Source: Takakia lepidozioides (Eukaryota > Plantae > Bryophyta). Taken from it: a DNA stretch of 64,000 nucleotides. Below the pieces are notes generated by a model, which worked only from the letters and a program-made list of their open reading frames with translations, searched no databases and had not been told where the DNA came from. The stretch is from positions 9,796,001 to 9,860,000 of the forward strand of contig CM060733.1 of NCBI GenBank assembly GCA_030704615.1, written 5' to 3'. The translations under genes and the position numbers were made by a program. Numbering within the stretch: the first letter of the stretch is position 1; each line of letters starts with the position of its first letter. Shown here in pieces: positions 24,707 through 57,900 of this stretch.

Positions 24707-25903
24707 TCAAGGAGCAGCAGTCAAACTCGGTGCAAAATTGGCGTTGGGAAGGTAGCGGAGCTTGAGCGAGTGAGATGGATCAGACACGCCAATATTATGT
24801 ATGATAGGCTGCTCCCCCTTAGTATCATTCGTGACGTTGTACCAGAGGAGAGAATCTCCACAGGTCACCCAGATACACTCATCTCTTGCTGCGCATTGCC
24901 AGTTGTCTTCGAAAGCTTCTAGGGTAACGAGATCCGTCTTACCGACATCATGCGACAGCTGGGTTAATGGAAAAGATCTATAGTTTCCTCCTTGCAGCTG
25001 AATCCGGGTGATGCGAAAATTCACAATCAATTCTGAAAAATCAGGCTGCAGGCCCGCCCATGAAACTCCTATAAGGTAGAGAGTATCCTTGCACGCCACA
25101 AGCCGTGGCTTGCTCATATCTTTACAATAGTTCTTGAACAAACTTTGAAGAAAGATAAATGTCAACTCTCCTTTTTCCATGTCAAATGCGTTCAACGTGA
25201 TTAGGTCTCTTCGACCGTGACTTAGCTCCTGCAGGAAATAGAAGATCCCATTGCATACCACAGAATCATGCGGTGCGCGTACCTTAGCTGGAAATCTACG
25301 TAGCATCCATGTTTGTGTTGCAGAATTGTAAACTTGGAGGAAACACCGACCAAAGACAAAAACGTTGTATGTCCCAGAGAGGTGATCAACGTACATGGTT
25401 GCACAGCCTCTTCCATCGACCGCTCGATCAGGCAACTGCTTCCAACTCCTGGTCACCGGATTACAAACATACAATTGCTGGGTTTTCGGGTCAATGCTTC
25501 GACGACATAATACTAGGCCCCCAGCTGCAGTAAGAACGGTACTCTTGACTCCATTCGGAAGGAACGACAAAGAAGGCAGAGCTATTTGCCATTCCTTTGA
25601 TGCGTGATGCACTCCCCAACCCAATTTACTCTCCCGACGAGAAATCGCGCCGTGCTCTCGCCCAAAACAAAGGGGAAAGAACCAATCTGTTAATTCCACG
25701 CCCATCTTCACACGCATTTGCAGAAAGGAAGGTCGCGCGAGGTTGAAGCGACTCCATGTAGTGCACACTGCTTGGGATGTAAGAAGATCGCGCACCGGGA
25801 GATTCGCAAGAACAATCTCTACAATCTCTTCGGGTAGACGCCTGCAATCCCCGTCTTCACCTTCGATTTGTTCTCTCTTCGCAACTTTCCGACTCTTGCC
25901 CAT
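24707..25903 (-). CDS. F-box protein with kelch-like/FBA-type C-terminal domain, intronless, 398 aa
   Basis: LPEEIVEIVLANLPVRDLLTSQAVCTTW F-box; AAGGLV, LYVCNPVTRSWKQLP, VYNSATQTW. Confidence 0.9.
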   Translation of the reverse strand: MGKSRKVAKREQIEGEDGDCRRLPEEIVEIVLANLPVRDLLTSQAVCTTWSRFNLARPSFLQMRVKMGVELTDWFFPLCFGREHGAISRRESKLGWGVHHASKEWQIALPSLSFLPNGVKSTVLTAAGGLVLCRRSIDPKTQQLYVCNPVTRSWKQLPDRAVDGRGCATMYVDHLSGTYNVFVFGRCFLQVYNSATQTWMLRRFPAKVRAPHDSVVCNGIFYFLQELSHGRRDLITLNAFDMEKGELTFIFLQSLFKNYCKDMSKPRLVACKDTLYLIGVSWAGLQPDFSELIVNFRITRIQLQGGNYRSFPLTQLSHDVGKTDLVTLEAFEDNWQCAARDECIWVTCGDSLLWYNVTNDTKGEQPIIHNIGVSDPSHSLKLRYLPNANFAPSLTAAP

Positions 25904-26420
25904 TTCTCACTGGGATTCTCTAAAGCTAAGCTGTTAAAAGCTCTGGAGACAAACAATTTTCGACTCCAGAGAGATGAAAGAGATACGAGTATGTGCAAGT
26001 GAGCGAGGCAACTTGAGATATATACTGTGCAGTGAACTTCGCGCAGACTGCCAAGAGGTGAAAAGAGGGCGGACTTATCTTTTCCGGAAATAGCAAAAGC
26101 GAATAGCAAAGCAAAAAGTTTCCTTTGTATTCAAGATAGTCTTTCGACGCGCAGTAGGCCCGCCACGCCTTCTCCCTAATAATCTGTAAGGAAAGGAAGT
26201 TCTGAAGTTCAGCAATTTCCAGAGCGAATCCTTTTTATCCAGTCTTGGAATCGGATGTTGCCACTGAGTCTCCTGAAGAAAGTCGTGACGCCCTTTCATG
26301 AGCCTTTCATGCAGGTGCCCCTGTATGCAAGAGTCTCTTACAACCTTAGCTTATTGCATCAAAATCTATCACTCATATTATAAACACTAACATGGTGTAG
26401 ATACTAGATACTTCCACTTT

Positions 26421-29514: not shown

Positions 29515-30540
29515 CTAAATCTCTTCGTCAAATTCTTCTTCCAAAATCTCTTCAACATCCTCTTCAATCTCCTGACATTGTTCTAAAGTGGATCTCTCAC
29601 ATCCCTCTCGCGGATCATCTGGCCAATTTCTTGCAACAAATATTATTTTGTCCAGGTTCTTGATTTGAAGCCTGCGTCGTCGTAGTGAAGTAAGTAAACC
29701 TGCAAGAGAAAAGATCCTTTCAGTTTCAATCTGGCTGCCAACGATGCCTAGAATTTGTCGAGCTAAATAAGCCACAGTAGGAAATGTGACTTCATTGGAC
29801 TTCCACCACATTAAAGGCTCCTTGCACCTCTCCAAGTCCACTGTAAAGCGTCGGAATGATGACAATTCCTTGGTCACAAACTCTTTGTTTGTCTCTGATG
29901 CCATCACTGACATTTGGAAAAGGTCAAGTGTGTTGAACCGTGCTGGATCAATTTGTGACTCTTCATGACCATCGAACCTAGCAATGCGACGGTGACAATC
30001 GGTGAGCAGAGGTATGAGAGATTGCTGGTCATACTCCTGAACAATACGAAGAGTTGCATCTCTTCCTATGAACTCACTGACTAGGGCCTTTGAAGTGAGG
30101 ATCGAGCATTAAAGCAAGCATGTTATGACATTTTCTTTTGTCAAATTTGTGCATGAATGACAAAAAATGAGTCGAGACACCAATCACTTCTTTCTACATG
30201 TTGATCCTGAAGTCTTCGAGTTCCCTGTCAAACTCGTTTAGCTGCGACATACCCCAAGTTGTCCTCCACAATTCTTGCATTCATGTCCCTTTGACATTTA
30301 ACAACCAAGGCTATGGCTGATTGCAAAGCATCTGATAATAACCAGTGTCCTCTACTTTGGTTTAGGACACAATTTGTGACTATAGGTGACAAAGTCTTGA
30401 CAACGGCATCAACCACAGCCCATGTCCTCGCACCAGGGACTCGAGATTGCAGATCATAACTGTCTGCATGGCTGTAGCAGTGATTGATGGCTGCTCGAAA
30501 CCGAAGAATATCTTGAAATAATAGAATACGGGTTGAAAAT
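29515..30540 (-). pseudogene. hAT transposase, 3' remnant with C-terminal dimerisation domain
   Basis: PLMWWK...FPTVAYLARQILGIVGSQIETERIFSLAG; LMLDPHF; frameshifted. Confidence 0.9.
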
Positions 30541-30697
30541 CTAAGCATCCCACAAGAAAGTTAACACCAATTAGAAATTAATACAACTCAGATGCACAAT
30601 CCCATTTACATACACAAGGCAACACAAAGCCACATTTGAATTATTCAGCCCCATCAACACAAAAATGATGCAATCTAGAAATTTTTGAAATTTTATG

Positions 30698-30885
30698 TGT
30701 CGTGCGCATACATATCGCTACACAACTACATCGCTGTCCAAAACCACACAACACATGTGCACACCACACACTAGTATACCACTAGTCTACCACTAGTCCA
30801 GCCACTAGTCCAACCACTAGGCTACAACTAGTCAGTCACTAGGCTGCCACTACGCTGCCCACTATGGCAGTCACTAGTCCACACA
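30698..30885 (-). repeat. Terminal repeat A2 (188 bp)
   Basis: Matches 31216-31407 apart from a 4-bp ACAT indel; contains a CACTAG array. Confidence 0.95.
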
Positions 30886-30886
30886 A

Positions 30887-31213
30887 TGATAAAGAAGAAG
30901 AATACAAGCACAAGCTCATGCGAGCTCACAAAGCTGAAGCATAAACTCATGCATATATAACCTCATCACTCAAATACAAGTCAAGCCAAGTGCACCCCAC
31001 GCCATGGGGAATCCACACTACGGCGCCATAGCTAGGCGCGGTGAGGCTCAACTCGAGAAAGATGAGCCTCCCGCGCTTGCCGTGAAGATAACCACTCCAG
31101 GGCCTAAATCTGCCTTGACCCCTGGATTGACACTTGGGCCAATCCCAAATGTCAATATGTAAAAGCTAGCTATTTCCTAGCTAGTTTCACACTAGTGGTA
31201 AAATAACTTGACA
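30887..31213 (-). repeat. Terminal repeat B2 (327 bp)
   Basis: Matches 41319-41645; one substitution seen (AAAAGCTAGC vs AAAAGATAGC). Confidence 0.95.
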
Positions 31214-31215
31214 GC

Positions 31216-31407
31216 TGTCGTGCGCATACATATCGCTACACAACTACATACATCGCTGTCCAAAACCACACAACACATGTGCACACCACACACTAGTATA
31301 CCACTAGTCTACCACTAGTCCAGCCACTAGTCCAACCACTAGGCTACAACTAGTCAGTCACTAGGCTGCCACTACGCTGCCCACTATGGCAGTCACTAGT
31401 CCACACA
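31216..31407 (-). repeat. Terminal repeat A1 (192 bp), directly after the PPT
   Basis: Copy of 30698-30885. Confidence 0.95.
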
Positions 31408-31409
31408 AT

Positions 31410-31420
31410 CGCCCCCCTAG
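31410..31420 (-). other. Polypurine tract
   Basis: Minus strand reads CTAGGGGGGCG-AT-TGTGTGG into repeat A1, downstream of the integrase ORF. Confidence 0.75.
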
Positions 31421-31669: not shown

Positions 31670-33119
31670 CTATCCCAAGCAGTGTGGACACAACCAATCT
31701 CCGTCAGGAACCTTCTCAAGAGGTGGTGTCAAGCATCCCATATGCCAACCCCTTGAGCACCGATCACACACCAGCATGGTGGCTGCCCCTTTGGCAGACC
31801 CACAGAGCATGCACCTCAAACCTGCAGGTACCACTGCCAAGTTTGGGTCAACTCTGCCATCGACATTGGGAAGGTGACATGGCGCACAATTACGCACATG
31901 GTCTTTCCAAGTCATGCCATCCCGACCCTCTAAGATCAGGACCCCTGAGGGCAACACCTCTCGAACCCTCAGAATAACACGCCCTGCAGTAACATCCAGA
32001 GTCGTAGGAGCAGTCTGCTGCAAATAAACATAGTCACCAGGGCTAAACCTCCGAACCCCAGGACGATATCCTCCACCACGTATAGTGGCATACCTCAACG
32101 TATCACGGTGCTGTGCAATGGCAAGGTTCTCAAAAGCCATGGGCATGACTTTCTTGAACAACTCTGCACGCTGATCACATGCACGTACCCACACGTCCGG
32201 ATCGTCAAGGTTAAGGACTTGAGCAGTGTCCCTACGAATGGCTGCAGGCAAATCCGGCTCTCGGCCAAAGAGAAGGAAATATGGTGAGAAGGAGGCAAGT
32301 GATGCTTGTTTGCTGAACCTGTAGCCCATGGCTAACCAAGGAACCTGAAGATCCCAATCTCCTAGGTGTCCCTTCTGCAAGCCATACTTGCGCAAACCCC
32401 TCTTCACCGTCTGAACAACTCTCTCTGCTAAGCCATCGGCCTCAGGATGATCCCGAAGTGGTGCGGTGGTCTATCAAGGCTTTATCACACAAAGCCTGAA
32501 ACTCCCCCAAGAACTCTCTCCCTTGGTCCGTGAGTACCTCAGCTGGAGCACCAAATCGGCTAAGCACACGATCCAAATGCATACGCAGCCCCCTCACTAG
32601 CCTTGTCAGGCAATGGAACCAACTCAATCCACTTGGAGAAGTGCTCCACCATCACCAACACATATCTGTGGTGGCGCATAGTCAGTGGCAACGGTCCTGC
32701 GAAGTCAAGACTCCACCTGTAGCCCAATCCCATGATAGGTAAAGGATGCAACTGTGGTGTAGGGGCGTTGAATGAAGCACGCACCCTGTCACACACCATG
32801 CACCTAGCCACAACTGTTGCACCTCTGTATGCATACCACGCCACCAATACTGCCCCTGCAGTAAACTGTGAGTGCGTCGCACTCCAAAATGCCCCAACTC
32901 CTCATGGGCATGCCGCACTAACCGTGCACGCTGTGTGGGGTGAGGCACAATCCTCACCCGACCATCCTCCCACACTCGAAGTAGGTGTATCCCCTCCCAC
33001 TTGAACCTCTTGGCTCGTTGCAGGATCCGATCCCTCTCCCTGGCAGTCACAATGGCTGCCGTGTCTCCCGTGCGGAGGTAGTCCAACACAGCCGAATCCT
33101 CATGTATATCTCTGGCCAC
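31670..33119 (-). pseudogene. Integrase (HHCC zinc domain, DDE core) with C-terminal PHD finger (31679-31813); frameshifted
   Basis: HAHEELGHFG...CMVC; WSLDFAGP; VLTDQGREF; CMLC...VCDRC...WHMGC...WLCPHC (C4HC3). Confidence 0.92.
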
Positions 33120-33299: not shown

Positions 33300-34610
33300 A
33301 TGGATTGCGACTCAATCCATCCGCATGCACAACCTGAAAGTCATACTCCTGGAGTATAAGTGCCCACCGTGCAAGCTTCCCCGTAAGCTTGTCTGACTCC
33401 ATCAACCACTTGAGTGGCTGGTGATCCGTGACAAGGGTGAAAAGATTGCCGTATAGATAGCACCTGAAGTGTGCCACGGCCCACACTGCAGCTAAGCACT
33501 CTCCCTCATATGAGCTGTACTTAGCCTCTGCAGCGTTGTTCGAGCGGCTAGCGTAAGCCACTACGAACTCTCTTCCCTCATCATCCTGTGTGAGCACCGC
33601 TCCAAGCCCCAGCATGCTCCAATCCGTATGCAGCTGAAAGGGACGCCCCCTGATAGGTCGTCTCAAGATAGGCGCCGAGGTCAACCTCGCCTTGAGCTCT
33701 TGAAAAGCTCGTTCCTGCTCATCTTCCCACTGCCACTCCTGGTCCACCTTGGTCAGCTTGGTTAGAGCCTTTGCAATGGTACTAAATCCCTTGACAAACC
33801 GTCTATAATAGTTTGCCAACCCCATGAAAGCTCGAACTCGGCTCACATCCGTGGGGCGTGGAATTTGTGCAATGGCCTCTACCTTAGTCTGCTGTACCCC
33901 CAATCCTCCAGGATATATCATGTGACCCAGATACTCAATCTGGTTGTGGAAAACTTGCACTTCCCCGGATGCAACTTCAATCCGTGCGCTCTCAAGCGCT
34001 CCAATACCACCTGAAGGTGTCTCTCATGCTCCTCCATCGTAACACTAAAGATGATGATGTCATCTATGTAGCACCGAGCAAAGTCCACCCCTGCTAGAAT
34101 CCTATCCATGACTCTCTGAAACTCTGCAGGAGCATTCTTAAGCCCAAATGGTAAGAACCGCCACTGATATAGGCAATCCTTGCCGTGCTCATTGATCCCC
34201 CAGAATGCCGTCTTCTGCTTGTCCGCCTCCTTGATTGGCAACTGGTGATATCCGGATCGTAAATCCAAAGTGCTAAAGGCCTTAGCATGCCCGATGGCAT
34301 CAAAGATCTCCTCTGGTGTTGGCATGGCATACTTATCGGACTTGGTCTGACGATTTACAGGCCGGTAATCACCGCACATACGTCTCTCCGTCCAATTGCC
34401 ATAGACATCCTTCTTGGCTGGCATCACTGTGGCTGAAGCATACTCTCCACCAGAGAGCTCCACCAAACCTGCCTCCCAGAGATCTTGAGTCCTCATCTGA
34501 ATCAAAGACCTCTCCATGTCACTGTATCTATAGGGTCTCCGAAAGATTGGCGTGTCAGTGGCCAACTCAATACGGATCTCTTGACCCTTCAGTGCTCCCA
34601 AGTCCTTCAA
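33300..34610 (-). pseudogene. Reverse transcriptase and RNase H (Ty3/gypsy); frameshifted
   Basis: RMCGDYRPVN, LDLRSGYHQ, PFGLKNAP, YIDDII; LHTDWS, YEGECLA, VTDHQPL. Confidence 0.95.
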
Positions 34611-35049
34611 ACTGAAGGCAAAGCAATTCCTGTAAGCCCTCAGGAACCGCCGTATACGTCGTCTCTCTCCTCCGGTGACAATGGGTCCAATGTCAGGCTC
34701 CCAATTGTCCTCCGTAACTACAACCTTAAGTCCAGTGGGCTTAGAGGTAGAGGACGCGTCCGTGGTTGCTATGCTGCAACCTCTTGAGCAGTACTCCCTA
34801 CCTGCTCAGTCAATGACAAGGCCTCATCCTGCCCCATCATCTCATCCTTGAGGACCTCCTCAACCGAGAAGAATCCCCAACCTCATCCATCACAGCCGCC
34901 TTGGCTGCCAACTCCCTCTGAACCTCGAGCACCTCCCACGTGTGCCATGGATGCATGCACCCCGTGGTCCTCATATGCTCGCCCCCACTCACTGCCTGTA
35001 CCGTCTCGGTAGGCAGAGAGACCATTGAGGGAAGTGTATTCCGCACTCT

Positions 35050-36015
35050 GCGTTGCTCAGCTAGAGCCAAGCTGATAATCCAGGTCAAGCAATTGAGATC
35101 CATTGCTTGCCCCAACACTTGACGACGTGATGCCTCAGAAAGAGACGACACCGCCGTGGTACCAGTGGTAAAACCCATTGCCCGCTCACGCTCGTCAGCA
35201 TTAGGCTCCACTAACTGCTGCAACTGAGCATCCCACAGGAGGCCAGGTCCACTATCCCGGAAAGCATGCGATCCTGGGAAGCTGAGCAGTGTAGGTAATG
35301 CTGCTCGTGGTTGACCCACCTTGTTGACCACTGCCAAAGGCGAACGGTCATCGTGTCTCACACGTTGAGACTGCCTCCCTGTGTCCAGAATGTTATCCAC
35401 TGTGAGATGTGCTGGCCGCTGCACCCCATCAAATGCACGCTTGAGCAGTGCGGGTGGCATCAAGTTAGTCCACCATAGCCGTGGACGATGAGCCCGTGAC
35501 CCCACTGTAGCTGCATCTAGCAACACTGCTGACCCAAGCCACGACCGGACTTGATGCACACTGGCCATCACCCTGGCCCGAGAATCGCCCATCAGTGGCA
35601 CATTCTCCAAGATGTATGCTGGAGATACAGCTTGATGAAGCTGCAAGTGGCGCAAAACCCGCACCATCTCCCAAAAGACCCGACCTCGAGTCTCGCAATC
35701 CATTGCCATGCCCGGCTGATGAATGCCCTTGGCAGGGCCAACCTGCCACTACCAGATCAATGGAGCCAACCCGCTCCAAATCCTGCGCCCCCAGCAACGA
35801 AATGTCTGCTGGCAAGGCCTGCTGATATCCACGAATTGCAGACACCGACAACAACTCAGGGTACCGCTGCACAACTGAGCAACATGGCGAAGTGAAACGC
35901 GTCGTGCAGTCTCATCCCTCTCCACATACAGGTAACGCCGAACTCGTACACCTGCCTGTAACACAGCAGCCAATCCGGTGCTGATCCCGCCAAACAAGTC
36001 CAGAAGACAAATGCC
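35050..36015 (-). pseudogene. C5-cytosine DNA methyltransferase domain, DNMT3-like, within the polyprotein; frameshifted
   Basis: Motif I LDLFGG, II YVERD, IV GWPCQ, VI ILENV, VIII HRPRLWWTN, IX ERERAMGF, X LGQAMD, in canonical order across three frames. Confidence 0.9.
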
Positions 36016-36370: not shown

Positions 36371-36763
36371 TCACAGGAGCTGCACACGCCGGCCCTCCCC
36401 TGACTGCCATGCAGGCCTATAGGAAGCTGACTCCTCCCAAAAATCCAGGGTGAAGCCCATGGGGTACAACACTGCCCCACCAACCAGGACATCGTATGAG
36501 ACTGCGTCTGTCACAATGGCCTTGGCTCGCATCACTGAGCCATCTGTAGGGTGATCCGGCCGTAGTCTGATAGCCAACTCATGCCGTGTCATGCCCCGAG
36601 CCTGCTCCGATCCTCCCAGAGACGTCTGTATCTGGAAAGGACAAGGCTCCATATCCGCCTCCGTGAGGCCCAAGCCTGCAATAGCAGCTCTGCCCAGCAT
36701 CAGTGGCTGAGCTCCCGAGTCCAACAAGACCGCAGTGGCCGGTACCTTTGCCTGCCGGTCCAC
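36371..36763 (-). pseudogene. Retroviral-type aspartic protease
   Basis: VLLDSGAQ; YDVLVGGAVL. Confidence 0.85.
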
Positions 36764-37189
36764 TCAAACAGAAAATGCCATCCTGGTTGTCTAACATGAC
36801 AACTCCAGGTGTCACCATGGCGCGCTCAATGGCTGGCCTAGCTGGCAGCTCCATCAACCTGGCAGCTGCAGCTTGCCATGGCGCCGCCGTGGCAGTCTTG
36901 ACCCTCAAATCCGAGGATCCCTCCGGCACTACACCTCCCACTATCTCCGCAGAAGATGAAGTAACCTCCCCACTCTCACAGAGTGTAGCTGCCAGCCTGA
37001 ACACCTCAGCTGGTCTTACCCCGGCGTCGCAATCATGGTAGCCGAGAACAATGGAGCCTGGCACACAGATGTGGCCGCTCCTAGCAGCACACTAGCTGCC
37101 GTAGCCTTGGCAACACTAGGTAGTGTGCTACCCGTGTAGCTCTCCCCAATGGCATAGTAACCTCCGCCTCGGTAACAGTCGGGCGAGAA

Positions 37190-38922
37190 CTAGGTGCCAT
37201 GGATGGCGTCGACACTGTCTCCCGCCAATGTGAATGACTGAGGAAGCCTAGCCTGACGGCTTGCCTCCCCACGCTGTGGATCCAACTCCACCTCTGCACC
37301 TCGTGGCTCAGGAACTCGTGCTGCTCCTCGAGTCACGGCTGCAGCAGACTCCACCTGCACTAGTGGTAGTGCTGCTCCACACATGAATCCCATGCCTCCC
37401 ATATCTCCTCCCTCAGGAGCAGGAGGTGGACCATCCGGCCTTAGAGCCGGTACCACCTGAGCTGTAGCCATGGCAGCGAGCCTCTGCTCTAGCTGCTGAA
37501 GCCGGTTGGCCATGCCTTGGTCAACACCCTGACCTCCGCGTCCTTGGCCACGTTGAGCTTGCCCTTGGCCTGCACCTCGTGGCTGGCCACCTCGTCCTCT
37601 CTGGGCTGCTCCACCTCGCCCCCGGCCACCATTGTTCCCTTGGAACTGGCCTGGGCGCAACTCAGGATGCAAACCATAACACTGGGCCTCTCCATGCCCG
37701 TGCTTGCCACAATGCCCACACTGCAACTGTGCAGGCTGTGCATGTGCCGGCCCTTTGCCTCCCTCTGGGCAATCCTTCTTGACATGGGGTCCTCCACATG
37801 TCCAGCACACCACATCCGCCCGTTGTTGGCCAGCAAATGAAGGGAGAGACCCCTGCATCTGAGGTCCTCTCTGCCCTTCCCTGAGCTTCACCTGAGCCCC
37901 CTTGTTGCCTTGAGCACGTTGAGGTAGTGGTTGGCTAGGAGCACCACTACCCCGTGGTGTCTCCTTAGCAAATCCCACCATGACCACTCGTTCCTCCACC
38001 ATGTTGAGCTCTATCCGCTCTGCCAGCAAAAACACATTTGCTAAGGTGGGTTGGGCCGCTTGTAGGAGAGTTGCATCCCGCACCCTTCTCCTCAGCTCCT
38101 TGTCCAATATCCCATACCAGAATTGGACTGCCTGAGCTTCCGTAACCCCTTGGGTTACATTTATCAAGCGCCTCATGCGAGTGAAAGCCTCCCTCAAGCT
38201 CTCGGTCGGCTTCCGTTGGAACTCTTGCAAGCTCCGCAACTTCTCTGTCCTCACCCCTTGGTAGTTCCCTCTCAACTCTTCGAAGAACTCCACAACAGGG
38301 TTGAAGGCAGGCACGGGTGCTAGTGCTGGTGCGGTAGTGGCTTGGGTGGACGTCGTAGCTACTGTACCACCAGTCCCACTGCTACTTGCTGAAGCTGCCG
38401 GTGCAGCGGCAGGTGTAGCCACTGCCCTCGTGGCTCTAGTGCCCCTAGTGATGGAGACATAGTCGGGTGACCAGTACATCCTCCACTCCTCGATCTCAAC
38501 CTCATGCCCCCGCCTGAACTCATGGTAATCATCCATAGGCGGCCCCTCAAGGTGCTGAAACAGCCCTTTCCATGCCATGAACGGCGTAAATAGTTGTGGA
38601 TTGCGCATTTGCTGCAAATCACACCAACTATCAAACTCTTGGATAAAATCATCCAACTCGATGGTGCCCACCGCCCCAGAGTACCTTCGTGGCCCCTTGG
38701 TAGCTCCATACATCTCCATTGTGTCCCAACAATGGCAAAGAAACAACTTGCACCGCCGGTATGAGCCCCTGATTCACAATCCGAATCAGAACCTTCCGTG
38801 GAAGACACAGGAGGTGAAGGTGGCCTAAACCGCACACCTCGTCTCGTGTACCCACTAGTATCGCTAGTGCTCGAACCGGCACTGTCCCCAGCAACTAGTG
38901 GCACCTCCGTGTTGACACTCAA
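37190..38922 (-). pseudogene. Gag with two zinc knuckles
   Basis: FQRKPTESLREAFTRM; CWTCGGPHVKKDC and CGHCGKHGHGEAQC; RGG-rich tract. Confidence 0.85.
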
Positions 38923-39169
38923 CCGGTCATGAATGTCCCTAACCCCCTCTCCACAAGGTAACCGGGTAGAGAACCTGTTGCGGCTTATGGTTTGGAATAC
39001 TAAGTTCCTAACATAGCCTACACCTGAACTTGCATGACCATGGGAATATCATGAAGATACTCCTCAAACCGCCCTCCACAGCTTCAAAATTCGGCCTTCC
39101 AGACCACATGCCAGTCCTTCCACCAGTGCCTCCACAGTCAGCACAGGCCATCCACAGGTCAACACGGGC

Positions 39170-39800
39170 CACCACAGACCAGCACAGGCCCACACAGCTC
39201 ACTGGTCACAGCCGTCCCACAGGCCAGGGCACAGCCTGTCACAGCCCCTCACAGGGCCTCAGGCCGCCTCACTCAGGCACGGCCTGTCACAGCCGTCACA
39301 GCCCCCTCACAGCCCGCCCGGGCAACAGGCGGGCCTCAGGCACACAGGGGGCCCACAGCCCGCCTTGTCAGGCCTCATGTCACAGCCCCACTCACACACA
39401 GCCCCTCACAGCCCGTCACAGGGCCGACAACAGCCCTCACAGCCCACAGCCTGGGCACAGCCTGTCACAGCCTTGCCCGTCACAGCCCTGTCACAGCCGG
39501 CCCGGGGCCCAGGCCTTCACAACAGCCCGGTGGTCACAGCCTTACCTTCAGGCCCGCCTTTGTTTTCAGTTGGGTCAGGCCTCACAGGGTGGGGGTGGGG
39601 CCCGGGTTGGGGCTAACAGGGTCACACAGCCCCTTTTATCTCACACAGCTCACAGGGTGGGGCCTTCTTTTGCTTGCCTTACAGCCACAGCCCGGCCTTT
39701 GATGTGCCCGTCACAGCCTTTGTCACAGCCCCTCACAACAGCATTTGTCACAGCGCCCGTTGTCACAGCCTTTTGTTCACAGCTTTCACAGGACAGCCTT
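39170..39800. repeat. Degenerate (T)CACAGCC array in the element leader
   Basis: Dozens of CACAG(C/G)C units. Confidence 0.85.
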
Positions 39801-41306: not shown

Positions 41307-41319
41307 ATCTTTCTCGAGT
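41307..41319 (-). other. Putative self-priming primer-binding site
   Basis: 13 nt perfectly complementary to 41483-41495 inside repeat B; no TGG-type tRNA PBS. Confidence 0.7.
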
Positions 41320-41645
41320 GATAAAGAAGAAGAATACAAGCACAAGCTCATGCGAGCTCACAAAGCTGAAGCATAAACTCATGCATATATAACCTCATCA
41401 CTCAAATACAAGTCAAGCCAAGTGCACCCCACGCCATGGGGAATCCACACTACGGCGCCATAGCTAGGCGCGGTGAGGCTCAACTCGAGAAAGATGAGCC
41501 TCCCGCGCTTGCCGTGAAGATAACCACTCCAGGGCCTAAATCTGCCTTGACCCCTGGATTGACACTTGGGCCAATCCCAAATGTCAATATGTAAAAGATA
41601 GCTATTTCCTAGCTAGTTTCACACTAGTGGTAAAATAACTTGACA
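41319..41645 (-). repeat. Terminal repeat B1 (327 bp), 5' end of the element
   Basis: Copy of 30887-31213. Confidence 0.95.
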
Positions 41646-41661
41646 TATGAAACTACTGTAC

Positions 41662-46326: not shown

Positions 46327-46496
46327 AAAAAAAAGTATGACGCCTCTCCAAGGGAGCGTAACTTATGGTCTCTCTTCACCACAAGGGCTACTGCCTTCCA
46401 GCTGAAAGATGGACACCTTCATGACACACCAGACCGTGGGTTGAACCCACAACCACATCCAACGTCGTATGTGCCTATTACCACTGGGCTACATCC
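46327..46496 (-). mobile_element. tRNA-derived SINE-like Pol III unit
   Basis: A box TAGCCCAGTGG (46491-46481), B box GGTTCAACCC (46447-46438), T8 run at 46334-46327. Confidence 0.5.
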
Positions 46497-46780
46497 ATAT
46501 ACTCGTGAAAAGATTCACTTATCACTCTCTGAAAGGTTGCTGGTGCATTACAAAGTCCAAAAGGCATGACTTTGTATGCATAAGCACCCCAGTCTGTGAT
46601 GAAAGCTGTCTTTCCCTGGTCTTCTTCTGCCACTTGCACTTGATTATAACCACCGAATGTTAAAGGACTGTCTGGGACTTAGACACTTATACGGGATCTG
46701 TGGGGTACCCTTAATTTTTGCACAGACTGAGACCAACAGGAGCCTTAGGGGTGACAGCAGCGCACTTTAGAAGGGGGTTA

Positions 46781-46919
46781 CACAGTCTGTCACAGCCCGT
46801 CACAGTCCGACACAGCCCGACACAGCCGACACAGCCACACAGCCAGTCACAGCCCAACACAACCGGTCACAGCCGGTCACAGTTTCACACAGCCAGTCAC
46901 AGCTTGACACAGCTGTCAC
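46781..46919. repeat. 10-bp-period CACAGYnnnn array
   Basis: CACAGTCTGT CACAGCCCGT CACAGTCCGA CACAGCCCGA ... Confidence 0.85.
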
Positions 46920-47631: not shown

Positions 47632-50600
47632 GTGACAGGCATCTGGTGGGATCATGGTGGTTGGAGAATTAAAGAATTTGATGTGAATCAAATTCCTTGT
47701 GAAACTGAGAAGGAAAGATTGTCCAAACGATTCTTTCAGAGGTTTTTGGAATTGCCAGACGGTTGTAAAGAAAACATTCTTAAGAGAGTGCATGATGCTG
47801 ACCCTGTGGGGTCTGGAGAAAGGAGTGATAAAGATTTATCAGGTGGCCTGTAGAGGAAGAGCACGTTGGTTACCAACATTGGTTTATGTGATAGCATTGC
47901 TATCCATTAAGCGAGTAGAGTTTGAAGGCTGGGAGGAAAGAAAGGTGAATGTTTATACTCATATGCATGAAGAGCTTGTACTGGTAAAGAATTGGATTCC
48001 AAAGGATATTTTGTGGATCAAACTCACACCAAGAACAACTTTCCAGACTTGTTTGCCATATGGTTATATGGTAACGGAGACTTCAAGTATAGCCAAGGGT
48101 GCATTGAAGCTTGAAAGAAACCCAGGCATATACGAGAGATATTACAGAAGAGAGTTTTGGTTATTGCCACATTAAAAAAATGAAAGACATGGGACATGAG
48201 TGATGAAAGAGAAGCTAGACGCCAGAGATATTCAGCAAAAAGAGAAAGCTATCTGAAAGCTAATTATCCATATCTTTGGGAGAGAGGAATAGACATAGGG
48301 GAATCATCTGGACCTCTCACACCATTAAGATCAGAGAGTACATCACCCATACCGGAAGAACTAGAGTTGGATGCCACTCCTTCTGTTTCTTTGCAAGAAA
48401 GATTAAGGGAATTGGTACGGGAAGAAGATCAATCACGAGGTGAAAGATCTGAGGTACATCCCTGGATAAAAGATTTGACAGAAATCTTTGATAAGAGTTG
48501 GCATGGAACACCAAAAGCAGGAACTCCAGTTTCTGAAGCGGAAGGTGAAGAAGGAGGAGAGGATGTGGCAGAGCCAACGGAGAGTTCAGACTCTCCAACA
48601 CCATTGCAGTTGAGTTACATGAGTGAAGAAGAAACCCAAGGGCAGAACTTGGAGGATGAAAACAGAGAGAAGAAATTGGAAGAGGAAGAGTATGAAGAAG
48701 TAGACCCAACAGCTGAGGTTGAGACTACAACCAGGACATCCCAACCCGTTGGACCTGGATCAAGTGGAGCACTTGGATCACAGGCCAACGAAGGTGTCGG
48801 CTCAGGGGGATCAGGCGGGCTGCCTGGATCTGGCTCTGGGGGGACAGGGAGTGTGGGAAGTAGTGCAACTGAAGCTGGGAATACTGTGAATATCGTGGGG
48901 CCAGTAGCAGGGAGTGCTCAAGGGCCACCACTTGGTGGAAGATCCACCACAACAACAACAGGTCCAGAAGGACCAGCACCAGCAAGGGTGCCAGCACCTG
49001 TCAGTGGGCAGAAGGTAGGGCCACATGGCGTTACAACCAACACGGGCAAAACCACCTTTTCCAATATATTCAGGAAAAGGGGATCCCGATGTACACATTA
49101 GCCAATTTGAGCACATGTGTATAGTGAACAATGAGAATGGCGATGATGCCAAGATGAGATTGTTTCCTTGTTCACTTATCAAGAAAGCAAGTGAATGGTA
49201 TGCAAGATTCCCTGATAATCATTTCCTAACCTGGAATGGCTTGAATACAGCATTCCGAAATAGGTTCAGGACAAGTAAAACTGAGGATGAAGTGTATGGA
49301 AGTTTACAACAGTTAAAGCAAAAGAAGCATGAAACTGTTGAGGAGTATATGGAAAAGATGGAATTGATGATGAAAAAGCTGGCTGCTGTACCAGCACCAG
49401 GTTTACAGAAGACTTGGTTTGTGAGTGGACTAAGACCAGAGTTGCAAAAGAAAGTGGATATGTTACCCCATAATACAGTGGAGGAGGCATTTGAAACTGC
49501 AAACAGAATTGAGCAATTGGGAATGCTCAGGAGAGAGAAAAGGATGATGAGGACTCTGAGGATGAGTCAGATGAAGAAGAAGAGCAAGAACTAAAAGGAA
49601 GAGTAAGAGAAAGGAGAAGTTGAAGAGGGATAACTATGAGAAAAGATTGGAAGAAATCTTGAAGAAGTATGCCACAGAGGCTGCAACACATTGGAGGAAA
49701 GGTGTATGGTGTGCAAAGTGCCAGAATGAAGGCCATACCACCACAGAATGCCACATGAAGGAGAAACACTGTACTATCTGTAAAATGGATAACCATTCTA
49801 CTGAGAATTGTTACTACAACAGAAGGACAGTTGCAAGAACCTAGGCAAGTAAGGGTGCATCAGGTGCAGCCCCAGCCAAGAAGAAACAATGATCAGGACC
49901 ACTATGGTAGGTCTGGTGGTTATAACAATGGCATGGAAGGGAGAGGTAATTCAAGAGGGAATTACCAAGGAAATTCCAGAGGCAACTATCAGGGTAATCC
50001 AAGGGGGAATTACCAGCCCGGGAATCAGGATTACAGAAATAATCCAAGAGCAGACCAAGGGCGAGGACCCAATGGTGAAGAACTATGTTACTATTGTAAT
50101 CAGCCAGGACATCGCAAGGCAGCCTGTTCATTCTGGATTAGACACCAGAATGAGATGAGAGCTCCTGTGAATGAGGGCCCAGTGGTGGCAGCTCACATGG
50201 TTAGGCCATGTGTTGTACCAGAAGTAAGTACAATGATAGTAACAAGAAGTAAAGCCAAACTAATACCTCCAGTAGTAGAGGAAGAGGATGATAATGAAGG
50301 TGGCAGTGATATGCCTGAAGATGATGAGGCTTGGAGAGATGAGAAGGAACTGCACAAGGAAGTGGCAGATACCATAAGGGAAATGCAGAAGAGTACTGAT
50401 ATTCCTGTGGCAGATTCCTCTGATTCTGATGGAGAAGAAGAAGTGAGTGAGGATGAAAGGAAGAAAAAAATGCAGACATGCAAAGTAATGAAGAGACTTT
50501 GGCTGAAGTAATATGCCAGACCAAAGCAGAGATTACCATTGGACAGCTATTGGCTGTGGCACCTTATTGTAGGCACAGGCTGTATCAAGCAATCAATCGA

Positions 50601-53600
50601 ATTGCCCAGGAGACAGGAAACACAGACCTGAACAGCAAGGTGACCAGTTAAATGTGAAGCCGGAAGGGCGAGAAACAGTCATGGACTTTGATGATTCTAT
50701 GCCAGTAATCCAATTGAGAATTGGAAGCACAGAACTAACTGATGTACTGATAGATGGAGGTTCTGGAGTAAATATCATGACAGACCAATTAAGAAAGAAG
50801 CTTGGTCTAAGTAACATGAAACCAGCCCCATTTACAGTAACAATGGCAGATCAAAGAAGTGTACAGCCATTGGGATTAATAAGAGGAGTTAAGATACAGA
50901 TACAGAAGATGATCTTTATGATCACAGTAACTGTGTTGAAGATGGATGAAGTCATGGAGGCTTACTCCTTATTATTGGGACGTCCGTGGCTGAAACAGGC
51001 CAGGGTATTCCATGACTGGAATTCTCAGTTACTAACCGTGCATAATGGGATACACGAGATACAAATTACCACAAAGAAATCTAGTAGATTACCTGCTACG
51101 AGAAGACCTCGAGGAGTCAGAGAGTATGACTGGAGAGGAGGACTGGATGAGGAGCAGGAAGCTACCCTGTTTTGCTGCACACCCAGAGTGGGAGCAGGTT
51201 GCAGAGATGCGGCTGGAAGGCCTAAGTTGTTTAAGGGGTATCTGCTGTGGTGTAGTGTCAACAACACCGATTGAAGAGGAAACCAGCAGTTACCCATCAC
51301 ATTTCTATGAAAAAAAGGAGAAATGGAAATCCTAGAGGAACCAGCCACTGTGAGTTTACAGGATGAAGTGGTGACTGGTTGGACAATCACAGCTGATGAG
51401 CAAGTGAGGGAAGTGAATGTGGGAACTAAAGAGGAACCGAGGATGGTGAAGGTAGGAGCTGATTTGGAGCCGAATTCTTTGAAGAAGCTAAGAGTTTGTT
51501 CATCAAATACAGAGATGTATTTGCTTGGAGCTATGAGGATTAAAAGGGATACCACCTGAAATCTGTCAGCATAAGATTGAACTGGAACCGGGGTCAGTAC
51601 CAATCAAGCAAGGTAAGGAATGAATCCCAACTACGCACAGAAGGTTGGAGAAGAGATCAAGAAGTTGGCTGAGGCTAAGTTTATATACCCAATAGAGTAT
51701 ACAACTTGGTTGTCACCCATTGTGATAGTTCCCAAGAAGAATGGTAAACTAAGAGTTTGTGTGAACTACAAGAAGCTGAATGCTTGTACGAAGAAAGATC
51801 CTTTCCCTTTGCCATTCACAGAAGCAGTATTAGACACTGTGGCAGGCCATGAGATGTACTCATTCATGGATGGCTTCAGTGGTTATAATCAAGTGCAAGT
51901 GGCAGAAGAAGACCAAGGAAAAACAGCTTTCATCACAGACTGGGGTGCTTATGCATACAAAGTCATGCCCTTTGGACTTTGTAATGCACCAGCGACCTTT
52001 CAGAGAGTGATAAGTGAATCTTTTCATGAGTATCTGGATGATTTCATGCAGGTTTCTTGGATGATTTCAGTGTGTACAGCTCTAAGAATGAGCACTTGCA
52101 TAAATTGGAGTTATGTCTGGCCAGATGCAGGATGAGAGGTCTGGGCCTGAATCCAGAGAAGTGTACTTTCTGTGTGAACTCAGGGGTGCTTCTGGGACAC
52201 ATTGTGTGTAAGAGGGGACTTCTTGTGGATCCCAGGAAAACAGAGGCCATTAAAGCCTCTCCACCACCAGTGAATGTTAAGAGTCTAAGGAGATTCCTTG
52301 GACAAACCAGCTATTACAGAAGATTTGTCAGACGGTATGCACAGATAGCAGCACCATTGAGCAAACTTCTGAAGAAAGATGCAGTGTTTGCATGGACACC
52401 TGAATGTCAACAGGCTTTTGAGGAACTTACATTGTCAGTAACAACTACACCTGTGCTGATTAGTCCTCACTGGCAGAAATATATTTCATGTTCACTGTGA
52501 TGCTTCTGGAGAAGCACTAGGAGCAGTGTTAGCCCAAAATGTACAGGAAGGATAGATTCACCTGTGTACTATGCTAGCCGATTGATGAACAATGCCGAAA
52601 GAAATTATAGCACAACGGAAAGAGAAGCATTGGCAATGATCTATGCAGTGAAGAAATTCAGGCATTACCTGTTGGCAAGAAGTTTATGTTCTATGTGGAT
52701 CACCAGGCTCTGATATACCTGGTAAACAAACCTCTGATAAGCGGAAGAATAGCAAGATGGTTAATAATCTTGCACGAGTTTGAGTTCGAGGTTGTTTACA
52801 AGCCTGGGAGACTGCATCTTGTGGCGGATCACTTGTCACGGTTATCAACAGGAGAACCAGCCACGGGAGTAGATGATCAATTACCATGCGAGTCTATTTA
52901 CAGTGGAGGTGCAGGGAAGTGCAGATGACTGGTTAGATTGGCAGTGGCCAATCAGATACTACCTTGCTCATGGTCAGTGCCCACCAAGTTATGGAAAGGA
53001 GCAGAGAAAGAGAATTGCTATCAAGGCTTACCTTACACTATGGTAGGGAGCAGAATGTATAAGCTAGGACCAGATGGAGTGCTGAAGCGATGCTTATACC
53101 ACCATGAAGTTAATAAAGTTTTGGAGGAAGTTCATAAAGGAGTGGCAGGAGGTCATTTTGGAGAAGAGACTACCAGCAGGAAAATACTACATGCAGGTTA
53201 CTGGTGGCCTACTTTGTTCAAAGATGTACACAAGTATTGTCAGAGTTGTGATGAATGTCAGAGGCTAGGACCTTTGCAGAGATCTGGGAAAATGTCTTTG
53301 CATCCTACAATGCCTACCATTACAACATGGGTACAGGCAGAGGCTACCAACAAAATACTATGTACTATCTTGGCTAAGATAGTCAATGCAAACAGAACGG
53401 ATTGGGATACAAAGCTGCTGACAGCTTTGTGGTCATACAAGACTTCATATAAAGTCACCACTAAGTATACACCATTCCAATTAGTTTATGGTATGGAAGC
53501 CTTACTTCCAGTGGAATTCCTGTTACCTACCATGAGAACGGAATGGGGAAAGAGAATGGAATTGCAAGATTCCATTAAGGTCAGGAAACATGAATTATAC

Positions 53601-53880
53601 CATGTGGAAGAAGTACGTGCTGATGCAGCTGATAATATGACCAGAATTCAGATGAAGAGAAGGAACAGTTTGATGAAGGCAAGTTAAAGACTTTTAAGAC
53701 GGGAGATTTGGTTCTATGGTTGCAGAAGAAAGAAAGATTAAAGCTTCTAAGCTTAAATCACCATGGAAAGGACCTTATGTCATACAAAAGATGTATGATA
53801 ACAACACCGCCATGTTACAAACCATTAACAAAGAGATGCTGGGAAGAGTCAATGCTAATAAGTTGAAGGGGTACAGTGGT
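47632..53880 (+). pseudogene. 5' extension + gag-pol, many frameshifts, integrase core deleted
   Basis: YSGKGDPDVH; three CCHC knuckles; VLIDGGSGVN; FMDGFSGYNQ, MPFGLCNAPATFQR, DDF; HCDAS, EREALA; GHFG...CDEC; SPWKGPY. Confidence 0.92.
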
Positions 53881-54015
53881 ATCCATGACAAACCATTGCA
53901 GCATGATTTGCATGTTGAAACGCAAAAGCAGTCACGGGCTGCACCAGTGTACCAACGGAGTATGGAGCACTTGTCGCTAGGCCGAGCATATATGACCAGG
54001 GCGGCAGAACAAGCG

Positions 54016-54198
54016 CGACACAGCCTATCACAGCCCATCACGGTACGACACAGCATATCACAGCCCAGCACGAGCAATACAGCCTATCACAACCTACCAC
54101 AACGTGTCACAGCCTATCACAGCTTACCACAGTGCAACACAGCCTATCACGGCGTACCACAGTATAACACAGCCTGTCACAGCTCAACACAGCCTACT
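54016..54198. repeat. 10-bp-period CACAGCnnnn array between pol and the extra ORF
   Basis: CACAGCCTAT CACAGCCCAT CACGGTACGA CACAGCATAT ... about 18 units. Confidence 0.85.
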
Positions 54199-54904
54199 AG
54201 GGTTACACAATCCATAGAATCAGTGACAGGTGGACGCAGGATAACTTCAGTGAAATGGCCGGCGGAAGAAAGGACGGAAGCCAGTTTAGAAAGGGACACG
54301 TGGAAGTCAGGGCGCAACACACAGCTGAGAAGGAAGTGCAAGAACGGATGTCATCAAGAAAGAGGACAAGAATGGCCGTCAAAATACCTAATTAGCACGT
54401 CAATTCGGATGAATGGCGGGCCCATTAATGAATACAGAAAAGGGCAACAGAACAAACGGCAAGTACAGAAAAGCGAAATTCTTGTCACATGTGTTATCCT
54501 AGTGGACAGTCCAGCAGGGAAAGTCCACTAAAGAAAATTAAATCTAAAATCCAGTCACAGCGGTTACAGCCAATCGAAAGCCAGAGAAGGGATCAAGAAA
54601 TTGGAGGGAAATTAAGCGCAAGAGTCGGCGTCGTTCTAAGTAACGGGCGTCTCGACGGGACAAACCATCAATGCTATAGCTTTGAAGCTATGGAGGAACT
54701 AACAGACTATACGCTCGCAATATTACTTACGCAGTGGCATAGGGACGAAAGAACAGAGCGGATCTTTTCTCTTGATCGATGCTTGCAAGCCCCGCAGGCT
54801 TACAAGAAATTACCCATAGCTTTTTGTGGCAACCATACGTTTATGCTTTGTGCCTGCAGGCATTTCTTCAATTGTTACAGCCAAAACATTTCTGTGGGTC
54901 TAGA

Positions 54905-57900
54905 ATGAAGAGAGTGAGAGGAATGGAAGAAATCAGGGTGAAGAGCACCACAATCCTGCAGAAACAAACGATTGCTACTCCACAGGCGGTACAGTTACTG
55001 AAGGAGCTGCGATTGCAAGGATTGCAAAGCAAAGATTGGACATTGCACCATAGACAGTACATGTTACAATTCTTGCAGAACTTTGAGCCAAGGACAGGAG
55101 CAACAACGGTGAAGGGAGTTGAATTAGTAATTACTCCCCTATACCTACAGCAATTGTTTCGATTGCCAGCAGGTCAGGTGCATGTGGAGGAGCACATGGC
55201 AAGACTGCAAATAAGGGACTTATTCCAAGAAGGGAGTTTCTTTAAAACTCAGGGTTATGCTTGTACCAAGGCCGTGTACCCAGGGCTAAGGGAGGTAGGC
55301 CAGGTATTGAACGTTCTGTTTGCCATGAAACAGAACCAACAGTATTTGAGCAGATCCTTCACAGAAGAAATACTCAAAGCCCTGAGAGGAGAAGAGGTAG
55401 AATGGGCGGACATAATGTACAACGCATTGGTAGACGAGATGAAAAGATTACAGGGTACTGCCCCAAAGTCTCCTATCATAGTGTCTGGCCCAATCATTGC
55501 TCAAATAATTCTTGATTCTGGCATACTTGATGCGCGAGAAAGAAAGGAGATGAGAGTGTTTGAGCCAGAAACCACTGCAATGGAAGAGCAAGGTTCTTCA
55601 CACAGTGAGGGTGGCCTGGCAGGGCAACCCGAGAATAAGAGACAGAGGCGGGGAAAGACTGTAGTGGCGGATCCACTGGCTTCACGGAATCCGCATGATA
55701 ATGTTTCCCAAGTTTTTGTGCAGGAAGGGGCACAGCAGCACAGAGAACTGCTATTACTGGAAGCAGGACCTTCAGAGAGGGAAGAGGAAGTTATTTCAGT
55801 ATCACAGCCATCACAGCCAGAGGATCGGCTTGTCACAAGGTTACCACAAGTTGTCTATGCAGTTCAACCAGAAATAATTGATTTAGAAAAAGAAGGGTTA
55901 GATATTCCCACTACAGAACAGGTGGTGGCAGAAATTGAGAAGGGGGACCTTCTCTATGAATATTCTGGTATGGTCAAGGACACAGTGATTCCGGAGGTGC
56001 AACAATTGTCCAGGGGAAACCCTGCAGTGCATATAATACACACACCTGTGACGGAGGTACCACAGGTAGAATGTCAAGACACTGCAGCACCGGTGACGAA
56101 TGAAGTGGTTCAGGAAGAAAATCTAGTGGGGCAATGGCCTGAATGGTTTGTAAGGCATCACACTGTTGAGGATCAGGGAGAACAGCAGCAAGCTCAGCAA
56201 GATGACCCTCAACAGGCTATGCTTATGAGTTCCATAAGCAGGACACTGAATTTGTTGGGTACTTATGTCAAATCCCATGTTCCCACTACTCAATTGGCAG
56301 CTTTGAGGGAGGAACTCAGGAAAGAGTTTGAGGCTCGACTTGCCACAGAGTGTGCAAACAAGGTCGATGAAGATGTCACTCTCAAAATGCAGCAAGACTT
56401 GGAGAGTACAGAAGCGGCTTTGCAATTGGCCAAGGAACAATTGATTGAGGCAGGCCTCGCACAAAACCACTTGCACGAAGCACATAAGCAACAACTATAC
56501 CAAATGCAGGTGAAGCATGAAAGCAAGTTGCAAGAAGTGAATGCACTACATATGGAGTTGCAAACAGTGCATGACAAGATGGCCATACAATGTGCTACAC
56601 TCACAACTATGCTTGACCAATCTACAAAAGAAATAAACAGTCAAGCGGAAAAATGTACGAAGGCAGAGGAAGAGAATGTTGAGCAAATGAAACTCATTGT
56701 CGATATGAAGAATACAATCTGTCGCAATGAGGATACTTTCAAGCAATACAGGGAGGTTGAAGCTGACCAAGAGAGGCACATCCTGGAGTTGCAACAAACG
56801 GTCATGGCCAATAGAAATGAAATCTCGGTCACTAACAAGGCTTGGAAGGAAGCCAATAATCTGCTTGCTGCCTATGCGAATTTGGTTAAACCTCATGCGA
56901 AGCGCATGGAGGCTTTACAACAGCAGTTAGATGTGTACAAACTCAGAGAGGAGCACACTCTCAGAGGAACCACAAGCAACTTGGTGGATAACCACCTTAT
57001 GCAGGTCTGGTTAGTACAAGGGCCAGTGGAGGGCAAAGCACCACGAAAGCTCACCCAAAGCGAGATGAATGAGCTCAGGCTGCAAGTGCAGAACATTGCC
57101 ACAACTACTATAGACAATGTCTATAGTAGGATAGCAGAGTTACAGGAGGATGTAGATGGCCTGCAGACTCAAGTGGAGGACCTCACTTCAAATATCGACA
57201 AAAGAGTCTATATACCTGAGGAACAGCTAATGGCTTCTTATTTACAAGCCAGAACTTTGGCTTTTCAGTCTTCTTCACAGGAGGTGCAGGAGATGCCAAT
57301 GGTACAAGAGCCAGTACCACCAACACCACAACAAGTCACTGTACCTGATCCTGTTGTTACTACAACCACACCACAGCCACCACAGCCTGAGGTATGGGGC
57401 AATGCTGCTTTTAACCCACCTAAAACTCCAGCTGCAAAGGAGTACAGTAGGGCTATGATTATGCCCTTCAACCAAATTCCCATTATATTAGATTTGGCTT
57501 GGAAAGAAATTAGTCCTCCGCAGTCATTGGCACATTACTATCAAATCATGCACATTTGGATGCCAGTGGCAACTAGGACTCAAGTTCTTCCGAACAATCG
57601 ACCAATTGAGGATCATCACTTTGCACAGTACTGGCATGAGGCAGGTACCATGTTGAAGGAATTAATTGCCTTCCAAGTTGTACATGGATTCATTTATACC
57701 AAGACCAAGGAGGTAGCAAGTATTGTCATGGGATGCGGGTTATACTACGCTTGTTTTCTGGTACGTTATCACATTGAGCAGCACAAGATGCAATCGCGCT
57801 TTCTGAGTTATTCCAGTGGGGATCATTGGGTCTTACCTTCAGTGCCACCTCATATGTACCTATATGAGGCAAAAGTTATGATACAAAAGGATTCTCAAAT

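Follow-up and report, generated by a model that had tools for sequence, protein, structure and literature searches.

A DNMT3-type methyltransferase in an abundant Ty3/gypsy retrotransposon family of the moss Takakia lepidozioides, and its possible role before insertion

We analyzed a stretch of 64,000 nucleotides from the moss Takakia lepidozioides (contig CM060733.1 of assembly GCA_030704615.1, positions 9,796,001 to 9,860,000; hereafter "the window"). On its minus strand, at 41645-30698, lies a Ty3/gypsy retrotransposon that carries a cytosine methyltransferase (DNMT) of the DNMT3 family between its protease and its reverse transcriptase (RT). The family of this element is abundant in its moss host, the copy in the window is young, and the methyltransferase domain is under purifying selection. 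We propose, at roughly even odds (a probability of about 0.5), that the enzyme is made at the level of the capsid protein, is packaged, and methylates the element's own new DNA before insertion. Conservation of the domain speaks for catalysis and its position for a role at the particle stage, and it is this combination that leads us to prefer methylation of the cDNA.

The methyltransferase domain and the element that carries it

An earlier sequence-only reading of this DNA had reported six catalytic motifs in non-permuted order, unlike DRM, and six-frame translation with motif mapping bears it out across 36003-35098 of the minus strand. LDLFGG (36003-35986), GWPCQ (35743-35729), ENV (35607-35599), HRPRLWWTN (35490-35464), ERAMGF (35187-35170) and LGQAMD (35115-35098) follow in the canonical order I-IV-VI-VIII-IX-X, without the circular permutation typical of DRM. 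The domain as a whole spans 35068-36015 and about 315 aa. In the window copy it is broken near 35871 and at 35675-35690, and GWPCQ lies in a different frame from the other motifs. Because these breaks split the domain, stop-to-stop open reading frames (ORFs) of the window gave no Pfam DNMT match; a 64-aa middle piece nevertheless passes the DNA_methylase model (26 bits, cut-off 22), and the top PDB match of the 214-aa C-terminal piece is DNMT3A (E 2e-4). Relatives are 66-75% identical, and such agreement lies well outside what chance would give. A profile built from 20 natural relatives matched DNMT3A in PDB at 2e-25 and DNMT3B/C at 1e-18 to 4e-23, against 4e-12 to 1e-9 for DRM-type enzymes and 8e-8 for M.HhaI. 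An AlphaFold model of the natural relative P0022 (54% identity with the window piece; pLDDT 77) retrieved DNMT3 in all 35 Foldseek matches listed, with a best E of 1e-15. By sequence and fold the domain therefore belongs to the DNMT3 family, as first suspected, and is nearer to DNMT3A/B than to DRM, DNMT2 or bacterial enzymes.

The element reads, on the minus strand, A1, primer-binding site (PBS), leader, Gag, protease, DNMT, stop, RT, RNase H, integrase, PHD finger, polypurine tract (PPT), B1, A2, B2. Terminal repeat A1 (41319-41645, 327 bp, beginning TGTC) abuts the PBS position (41307-41318), which was placed by its complementarity to A1 rather than by comparison with a tRNA set. The Gag ORF (37190-38773) has a Retrotrans_gag-like region with an E of 0.002, under the cut-off, and two Cys/His knuckles (37807-37694). 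The aspartic protease follows at 36437-36781 (LLDSGA, 36727-36710); it has frame breaks in the window copy, and its relatives match Asp_protease_2. Beyond the methyltransferase, a conserved in-frame UAG (34771-34769) followed by CAA-CCA (together 34763-34771) separates Gag-protease-DNMT from the remaining domains. These comprise a Ty3-type RT (33945-34540; YIDD at 34070-34059; RVT_1 3e-30; top PDB match Ty3 RT, 2e-35), RNase H (33307-33639; RT_RNaseH 5e-36), a DDE integrase core (32255-32721; LDFAGP, LTDQG, AERVVQT), again with frame breaks in the window copy and with relatives that match rve and Integrase_H2C2, and a PHD finger at the integrase C-terminus (31679-31813; Pfam PHD 4e-11). The PPT (31410-31419) directly precedes B1 (31216-31409, 194 bp), after which come A2 (30887-31213), the partner of A1, and B2 (30698-30887), whose terminal GACA is the right end of the element and near which contig depth climbs, from the 30694 bin. 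The same 4 bases flank the element at 41646-41649 and 30694-30697. Since A1 and A2 are identical at 326/327 bases and B1 and B2 differ by a single 4-bp indel, the insertion is young.

The sequence-only reading had placed the domain within the gypsy polyprotein between protease and RT. The position stands, but the conserved UAG intervenes, so that DNMT and RT do not share one uninterrupted pol frame. The order protease-RT-RNase H-integrase, the Ty3-type RT, the DDE integrase and the target duplication are those of Ty3/gypsy elements; the ends are not the canonical two full long terminal repeats (LTRs) but a split A...B-A-B layout. DIRS and Ngaro elements have a tyrosine recombinase and no DDE integrase, whereas this element has a DDE integrase and 4-bp duplications. 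A search of viral contigs with its RT gave no match.

The methyltransferase is a fixed trait of the family. The window stretch was found in thirteen sequencing runs from six studies. In four of these runs, the summed contig depth of the element is orders of magnitude above that of its flanks, a depth measure that is not a copy number, and depth over the DNMT is of the same order as depth over the RT. Alignment to Marchantia protein P0003 (62% identity over 663 columns, from the protease to beyond the DNMT) places six frame breaks in the window copy, two of them within the DNMT. At both of these, the contigs of three studies depart from the window sequence by small length differences alone (for example 328 letters with 0 substitutions and 2 gaps, 202 with 0 and 2, and 128 with 0 and 1), and the family frame is thus open there. 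Many indels, almost no substitutions and near-identical repeats look to us like long-read consensus error, although the breaks may also be real and private to this copy.

Selection on the domain is purifying by several measures. Variants within the family comprise 14 synonymous and 7 nonsynonymous changes (the 21 in-domain variants among 40 shown of 71 found), which gives a pN/pS of 0.17 (P 1e-4, or 7e-4 with transition bias), and none of those listed falls in a catalytic motif. For the intact pair L006/L017, dN/dS is 0.12 for DNMT, 0.04 for RT and 0.14 for protease. DNMT values are about 0.07 for the window against L003 and against L018, where dS is near saturation, and 0.20-0.56 in four other pairs, mostly of decayed copies. 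The catalytic Cys, the Glu and the second Arg of motif VIII are invariant in 67/67 near-full domains, picked by similarity and length. The domain also occupies the same position in dozens of loci; it is neither missing from other copies nor evolving neutrally with degenerate PC and ENV motifs, outcomes that would have spoken against the sequence-only reading. This conservation argues for a catalytically active protein.

Stop codon, split repeats and priming

In the intact loci L002, L006 and L017, DNMT and RT lie in one frame with exactly one stop between them. In six lineages with differing flanks, the window included, this stop reads UAG, then CAA or CAG, then a pyrimidine; stop, CAR and pyrimidine occur together in 25/28 subfamily-A loci, some with UAA and many of them near copies of one another. 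The window context fits CARYYA, the broader readthrough consensus. A CAA-UYA context drives readthrough in plants (PMC2754532), and that of L006 matches it. From this context we consider it likely that UAG-CAR is a leaky readthrough stop that leaves the methyltransferase on the Gag-protease side. Gag-protease-DNMT would then be the major product, and the enzyme would likely be made at the Gag level.

The A...B-A-B layout is that of the split-direct-repeat elements of the PAT/Ngaro type. It occurs in 7 independent related insertions (L022, L026, L040, L042, L057, L075 and L078/L080), and 3' B-A-B ends were seen in further copies. Elements end in TGTC...GACA, with exact 4-bp target duplications in 5/7 checked, the window included. 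The joint of B1 and A2 is a palindrome, GACA-NN-TGTC, ancestrally with GC at its center (GACA-GC-TGTC at 31209-31220 in the window), and the element ends are the halves of this palindrome. It is also present in the elements L065 and L100, in which the methyltransferase stands between RNase H and integrase, and L099 ends within it. B1 follows the PPT immediately, and A1 stops where the PBS starts; an LTR of the composition B+A would give these boundaries, provided that what inserts is an end-joined two-LTR molecule in circularly permuted form. The junction palindrome, the half-palindrome ends and the 4-bp duplications suggest that the integrase opens a two-LTR circle at the palindrome, its likely cutting site. 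A staggered cut there would produce 2-nt overhangs and CA-3'OH ends, which integrases normally use as their substrate. Foamy-virus integrase likewise cuts a palindromic two-LTR junction (PMC1180852), but at the joint between LTRs, whereas the palindrome that the DDE integrase here appears to use lies within the LTR.

Six insertions have the simpler form A...B. We considered them as products of one-LTR circles and dropped the idea; L046 (A...B) shares its flanks with L042 (A...B-A-B). One insertion site in two layouts points to assembly collapse or to recombination between B1 and B2, which explains at least L046. An AT is missing from the A2/B2 joint of L049 and of L078, two non-sister loci (approximately unbiased test, p 4e-16); this hints at fresh joining, and slippage in ATAT could also produce it. 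In L056, about 3.8 kb away from one B-A-B end, another lies in reverse orientation at 9282-9967, which makes a tail-to-tail pair of family copies.

The PBS pairs with a stretch of 13-15 nt in the middle of A, the sequence of which differs between subfamilies. In the window, the likely self-primer is 13 nt within A1 (41483-41495); 1/200 shuffles paired as well (z -5.7). In L022, L026 and L040, all of one subfamily, TATAAA stands about 33 nt before this stretch. By analogy with Tf1-type elements, the element likely primes reverse transcription from its own RNA. Tf1/Sushi and plant Tcn1, the latter present in mosses, also have a PBS complementary to the LTR and not to a tRNA (PMC6317226, PMC4600332); compared by features, they differ in having ordinary LTRs and chromodomains in place of split repeats, PHD finger and DNMT.

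Relatives and two architectures

The profile search returned 1005 clusters at an E of 0.001, of which 150 were listed. Named relatives of the element are found in Marchantia (many loci, several annotated), Calypogeia, three Sphagnum species, Riccia, Closterium, Klebsormidium (GAQ93235, P0198), Scenedesmus (KAF8056149) and Cymbomonas (KAK3250090), together with EukProt model SM000012, which we take to be Spirogloea. Vascular plants are absent among the named matches listed, most matches being without a name. The sequence-only reading had spoken of a land-plant lineage; the host is indeed a moss, but the element appears to be a branch of a clade that extends across the green lineage to Klebsormidium, Closterium and chlorophytes, and not a land-plant invention.

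The methyltransferase takes two positions in this clade. Bryophytes, Closterium and Klebsormidium have Gag-protease-DNMT ahead of the RT, whereas Scenedesmus has the order RT-RNase H-DNMT-integrase-PHD, which a search with an RT profile built from three seeds found in full in 36/248 proteins. The second architecture is one branch in the DNMT tree (67 element sequences and 4 phage outgroups; support 99, Cymbomonas inside) and in the RT-RNase H tree (99). PHD finger and junction palindrome are common to both. The simplest reading is a single capture of the DNMT followed by a move of the domain; there may instead have been two captures or horizontal spread, the trees covering DNMT-carrying elements and, for the DNMT, phage enzymes. 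Among the 67 element sequences, apart from the 4 phage outgroups, P0198 of Klebsormidium nitens, in which a protease precedes the DNMT, is a weakly resolved basal branch with a best identity of 40%. Loci L003, L018 and L023, which are near Sphagnum proteins, side with Marchantia in both trees and leave the moss copy of the window outside, and moss-liverwort RT-RNase H identity is 82%. This grouping suggests old paralogous lineages or ancient horizontal transfer.

We also considered a prokaryotic or phage donor of the DNMT and found no support for one: the best phage matches reach at most 60 bits, IMG/VR yielded 8 weak loci and GTDB 3 contigs, the latter whole retroelements in metagenome-assembled genomes and likely misbinned. 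In the ESM Atlas, phage clusters have the same feature score (0.96) as a streptophyte cluster, so this score does not rank relatives. The whole DNMT-gypsy elements binned in bacterial genomes in GTDB are L089/L101, L090/L099 and L091/L100. These elements, and protein P0027, which is labelled a bacterial methyltransferase, are likely eukaryotic contamination and could pass for gene transfer.

The same kind of element is already known from K. nitens. According to the accessible sections of de Mendoza et al. 2018 (PMC5890265), KnitGypsy-Dnmt3 is a Gypsy element with a non-permuted, intronless DNMT3 under purifying selection and with DIRS-like A-B-A-B repeats; the tie to Klebsormidium drawn by the sequence-only reading holds in these features, split repeats included, the host being an alga there and a moss here. 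Those authors describe the DNMT as an acquisition in the K. nitens lineage, whereas the relatives found here span bryophytes, Zygnematophyceae and chlorophytes. In the accessible parts of that description we met neither a leaky stop nor a palindrome at the junction, and no target duplication, self-priming or second position of the DNMT; the PHD finger is absent from its main text. SymbioDIRS-Dnmt3 of Symbiodinium (PMC5890265) also combines a DNMT3 in the retroelement polyprotein, two domain orders and A-B-A-B repeats, but is of the DIRS class, with a tyrosine recombinase in place of a Ty3-type RT, DDE integrase and 4-bp duplications. The EpiLTRs of Cymbomonas and Euglena, also Ty3 elements, likewise pair a cytosine methyltransferase with a chromatin reader (bioRxiv 10.64898/2026.05.21.726589, in the portion available). 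Their DNMT, however, is sister to DNMT4 and takes the 3' end of pol; DAM and a chromodomain accompany it, and the same preprint sets them apart from "streptophytes (Gypsy-DNMT3)". Host plant DNMT3 and animal DNMT3A/B, in which the best PDB sequence and fold matches lie, are only about 21% identical to the window domain, which lacks PWWP and ADD.

In the open-access literature we found no report of a DNMT-gypsy element in land plants or chlorophytes, nor of the stop, the palindrome or self-priming. Later papers, as far as their accessible text goes, speak of "streptophytes" for Gypsy-DNMT3, and bryophyte copies may already be known to their authors. Relative to the literature found, the bryophyte, Zygnematophyceae and chlorophyte range, the two DNMT positions, the leaky-type stop, the palindrome with 4-bp duplications and self-priming may be new.

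Function of the methyltransferase and its wider meaning

Hypothetically, the cycle would run as follows. Most ribosomes would halt at UAG-CAR after the DNMT while a minority read through into RT and integrase, so that the methyltransferase would be abundant in particles. Reverse transcription would prime itself from the 5' end of the RNA, as in Tf1. With B+A as the true LTR, linear cDNA would be joined end to end, and the integrase would open the internal B/A palindrome, which would yield A...B-A-B with a 4-bp duplication and leave one intact palindrome for the next cycle. The PHD finger would steer insertion via histone marks, and cDNA methylated by the DNMT would enter a methylated plant genome already marked.

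Several observations sit uneasily with this proposal. In yeast, KnitGypsy-Dnmt3, which is the closest enzyme to have been tested, produced no methylation, a result its authors deem inconclusive (PMC5890265); SymbioDIRS-Dnmt3, by the same source, methylates CG de novo. The Pro of motif IV (PC) is kept in just 33/67 domains and replaced in 34/67, by Glu in 28. Expression of the DNMT at the Gag level is not universal, because another subfamily lacks a stop behind the DNMT (0/44) and chlorophyte-type elements carry the DNMT inside Pol. PBS self-pairing was better than that of shuffles (<=2/200) in just 5/9 elements. The permutation A-B-A...B was never seen among family copies; as a plain two-LTR circle has two palindromes, the circle model needs an asymmetry that it does not explain. 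Finally, observed/expected CpG is 0.53 in the element and 0.65 in the domain, against 0.34 in a LINE (long interspersed nuclear element) and 0.20 in a second gypsy-like element of the same window, both DNMT-less. The element is thus less CpG-depleted than its neighbors, which misfits heavy CpG self-methylation in every cycle, and CpG depletion across the window elements gave no sign of self-methylation.

Family copies do become methylated, to judge by repeat pairs, which decay, per copy, by about 18-19% at CG and CHG but by 6% at CHH. The same decay, the conservation of the DNMT and the presence of the PHD finger in both architectures would also suit an active enzyme that works in chromatin, methylating the new insertion, its flanks or older copies after nuclear entry under guidance of the PHD finger, thereby damping its own transcription and limiting harm to the host. 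Host benefit and insertion-site effects were raised by de Mendoza et al. (PMC5890265). We regard this as possible but doubtful: the contig depth of the family, orders of magnitude above its flanks, means that any damping is weak, and host MET1/CMT would, from general knowledge, explain the CG/CHG decay. Quite unlikely, in our estimate, is a division of labor resembling restriction-modification, in which the DNMT methylates the first-made B/A palindrome and the chromosomal copies and the integrase cuts the newest alone. The finding of A...B-A-B and never of A-B-A...B calls for some such discriminator, elements with either DNMT position retain the palindrome, which contains CHG and flanking CG sites, and its two central cytosines are changed at 8/22 sites against a CHG background of 19% (P 0.04). 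This excess is weak, however, and comes from copies that are not fully independent; it would be explained by CHG methylation on the part of the host or by unconstrained change at the two central positions, and the DNMT3 enzymes tested so far prefer CG (PMC5890265). The idea can be extended to an ancient green-lineage Ty3 clade whose DDE integrase cuts a palindrome within the LTR of circular cDNA while the DNMT3 protects the earlier palindrome along with thousands in the chromosomes, which we likewise hold to be a long shot.

We give similarly little credence to a domain kept for binding or structure (of DNA, of RNA, or as a decoy for host DNMT3) and not for methyl transfer. The inactivity of KnitGypsy-Dnmt3 in yeast (PMC5890265), the frequent loss of the motif IV Pro and the lack of extra CpG loss in the element agree with it, but Cys, Glu and Arg are invariant in 67/67 sequences that are often just 35-50% identical, which is hard to explain without catalysis. 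An artefact, whether a captured host gene fragment, a nested insertion in one dead copy or an assembly chimera, might be suspected from the many frame breaks of the window copy, yet is scarcely credible: the same DNMT position recurs in dozens of loci and proteins of many species, contig depth over DNMT and RT is of the same order in four runs, and selection is purifying. We rejected it on this recurrence and on the comparison of contigs at the breaks. Methylation of the cDNA before insertion accordingly remains the reading that we prefer.

The rest of the window holds other repeats and two host genes. A second decayed gypsy-like element (48184-53687, plus strand, and 46492-46657) retains pieces of zinc knuckle, RT, RNase H and integrase, has no DNMT match, shows strong CpG loss (observed/expected 0.20) and has a 166-bp RT piece duplicated in inverted orientation. 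Directly after it and a TCACAGCC-type repeat array comes a 1090-codon open frame (54776-58048, plus strand) with no Pfam match and an Atlas score of 0.76 to a streptophyte cluster, possibly an extra ORF of that element. Similar CACAGCC tandem arrays with a 10-bp period lie in the leader of the DNMT element (39100-39800) and near the other element (46774-46910 and 54012-54210). There are also a fragmented LINE (981-4951, plus strand; endonuclease, RT, zf-RVT) and a hAT dimerisation-domain fragment (29515-30108, minus strand). The host genes are an F-box/beta-propeller gene (24707-25906, minus strand; 399 codons without a stop) and an mTERF5-like gene (14582-15907, plus strand; 441 codons without a stop). 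The mTERF gene shares 65% identity with Sphagnum, against 56-57% for other named mosses and 48-53% for liverworts; a quick one-gene tree places it among the mosses (SH-aLRT 97), on a weakly resolved basal branch with Sphagnum.

Among retrotransposon-borne methyltransferases, the single tested Gypsy enzyme, by the accessible account, was inactive in yeast. With the family in Marchantia, Sphagnum and Scenedesmus, the question of their role moves to tractable plants with methylation mutants. The distribution of the family suggests that the DNMT3 was captured before or across the chlorophyte-streptophyte split and is not an oddity of Klebsormidium. Bryophyte DNMT3 gene counts include copies of the element, and standard LTR finders likely miss or mis-trim elements with split repeats. 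If our reading is true, DDE integration from a circle would have a natural example in the split repeats together with the palindrome at their junction.
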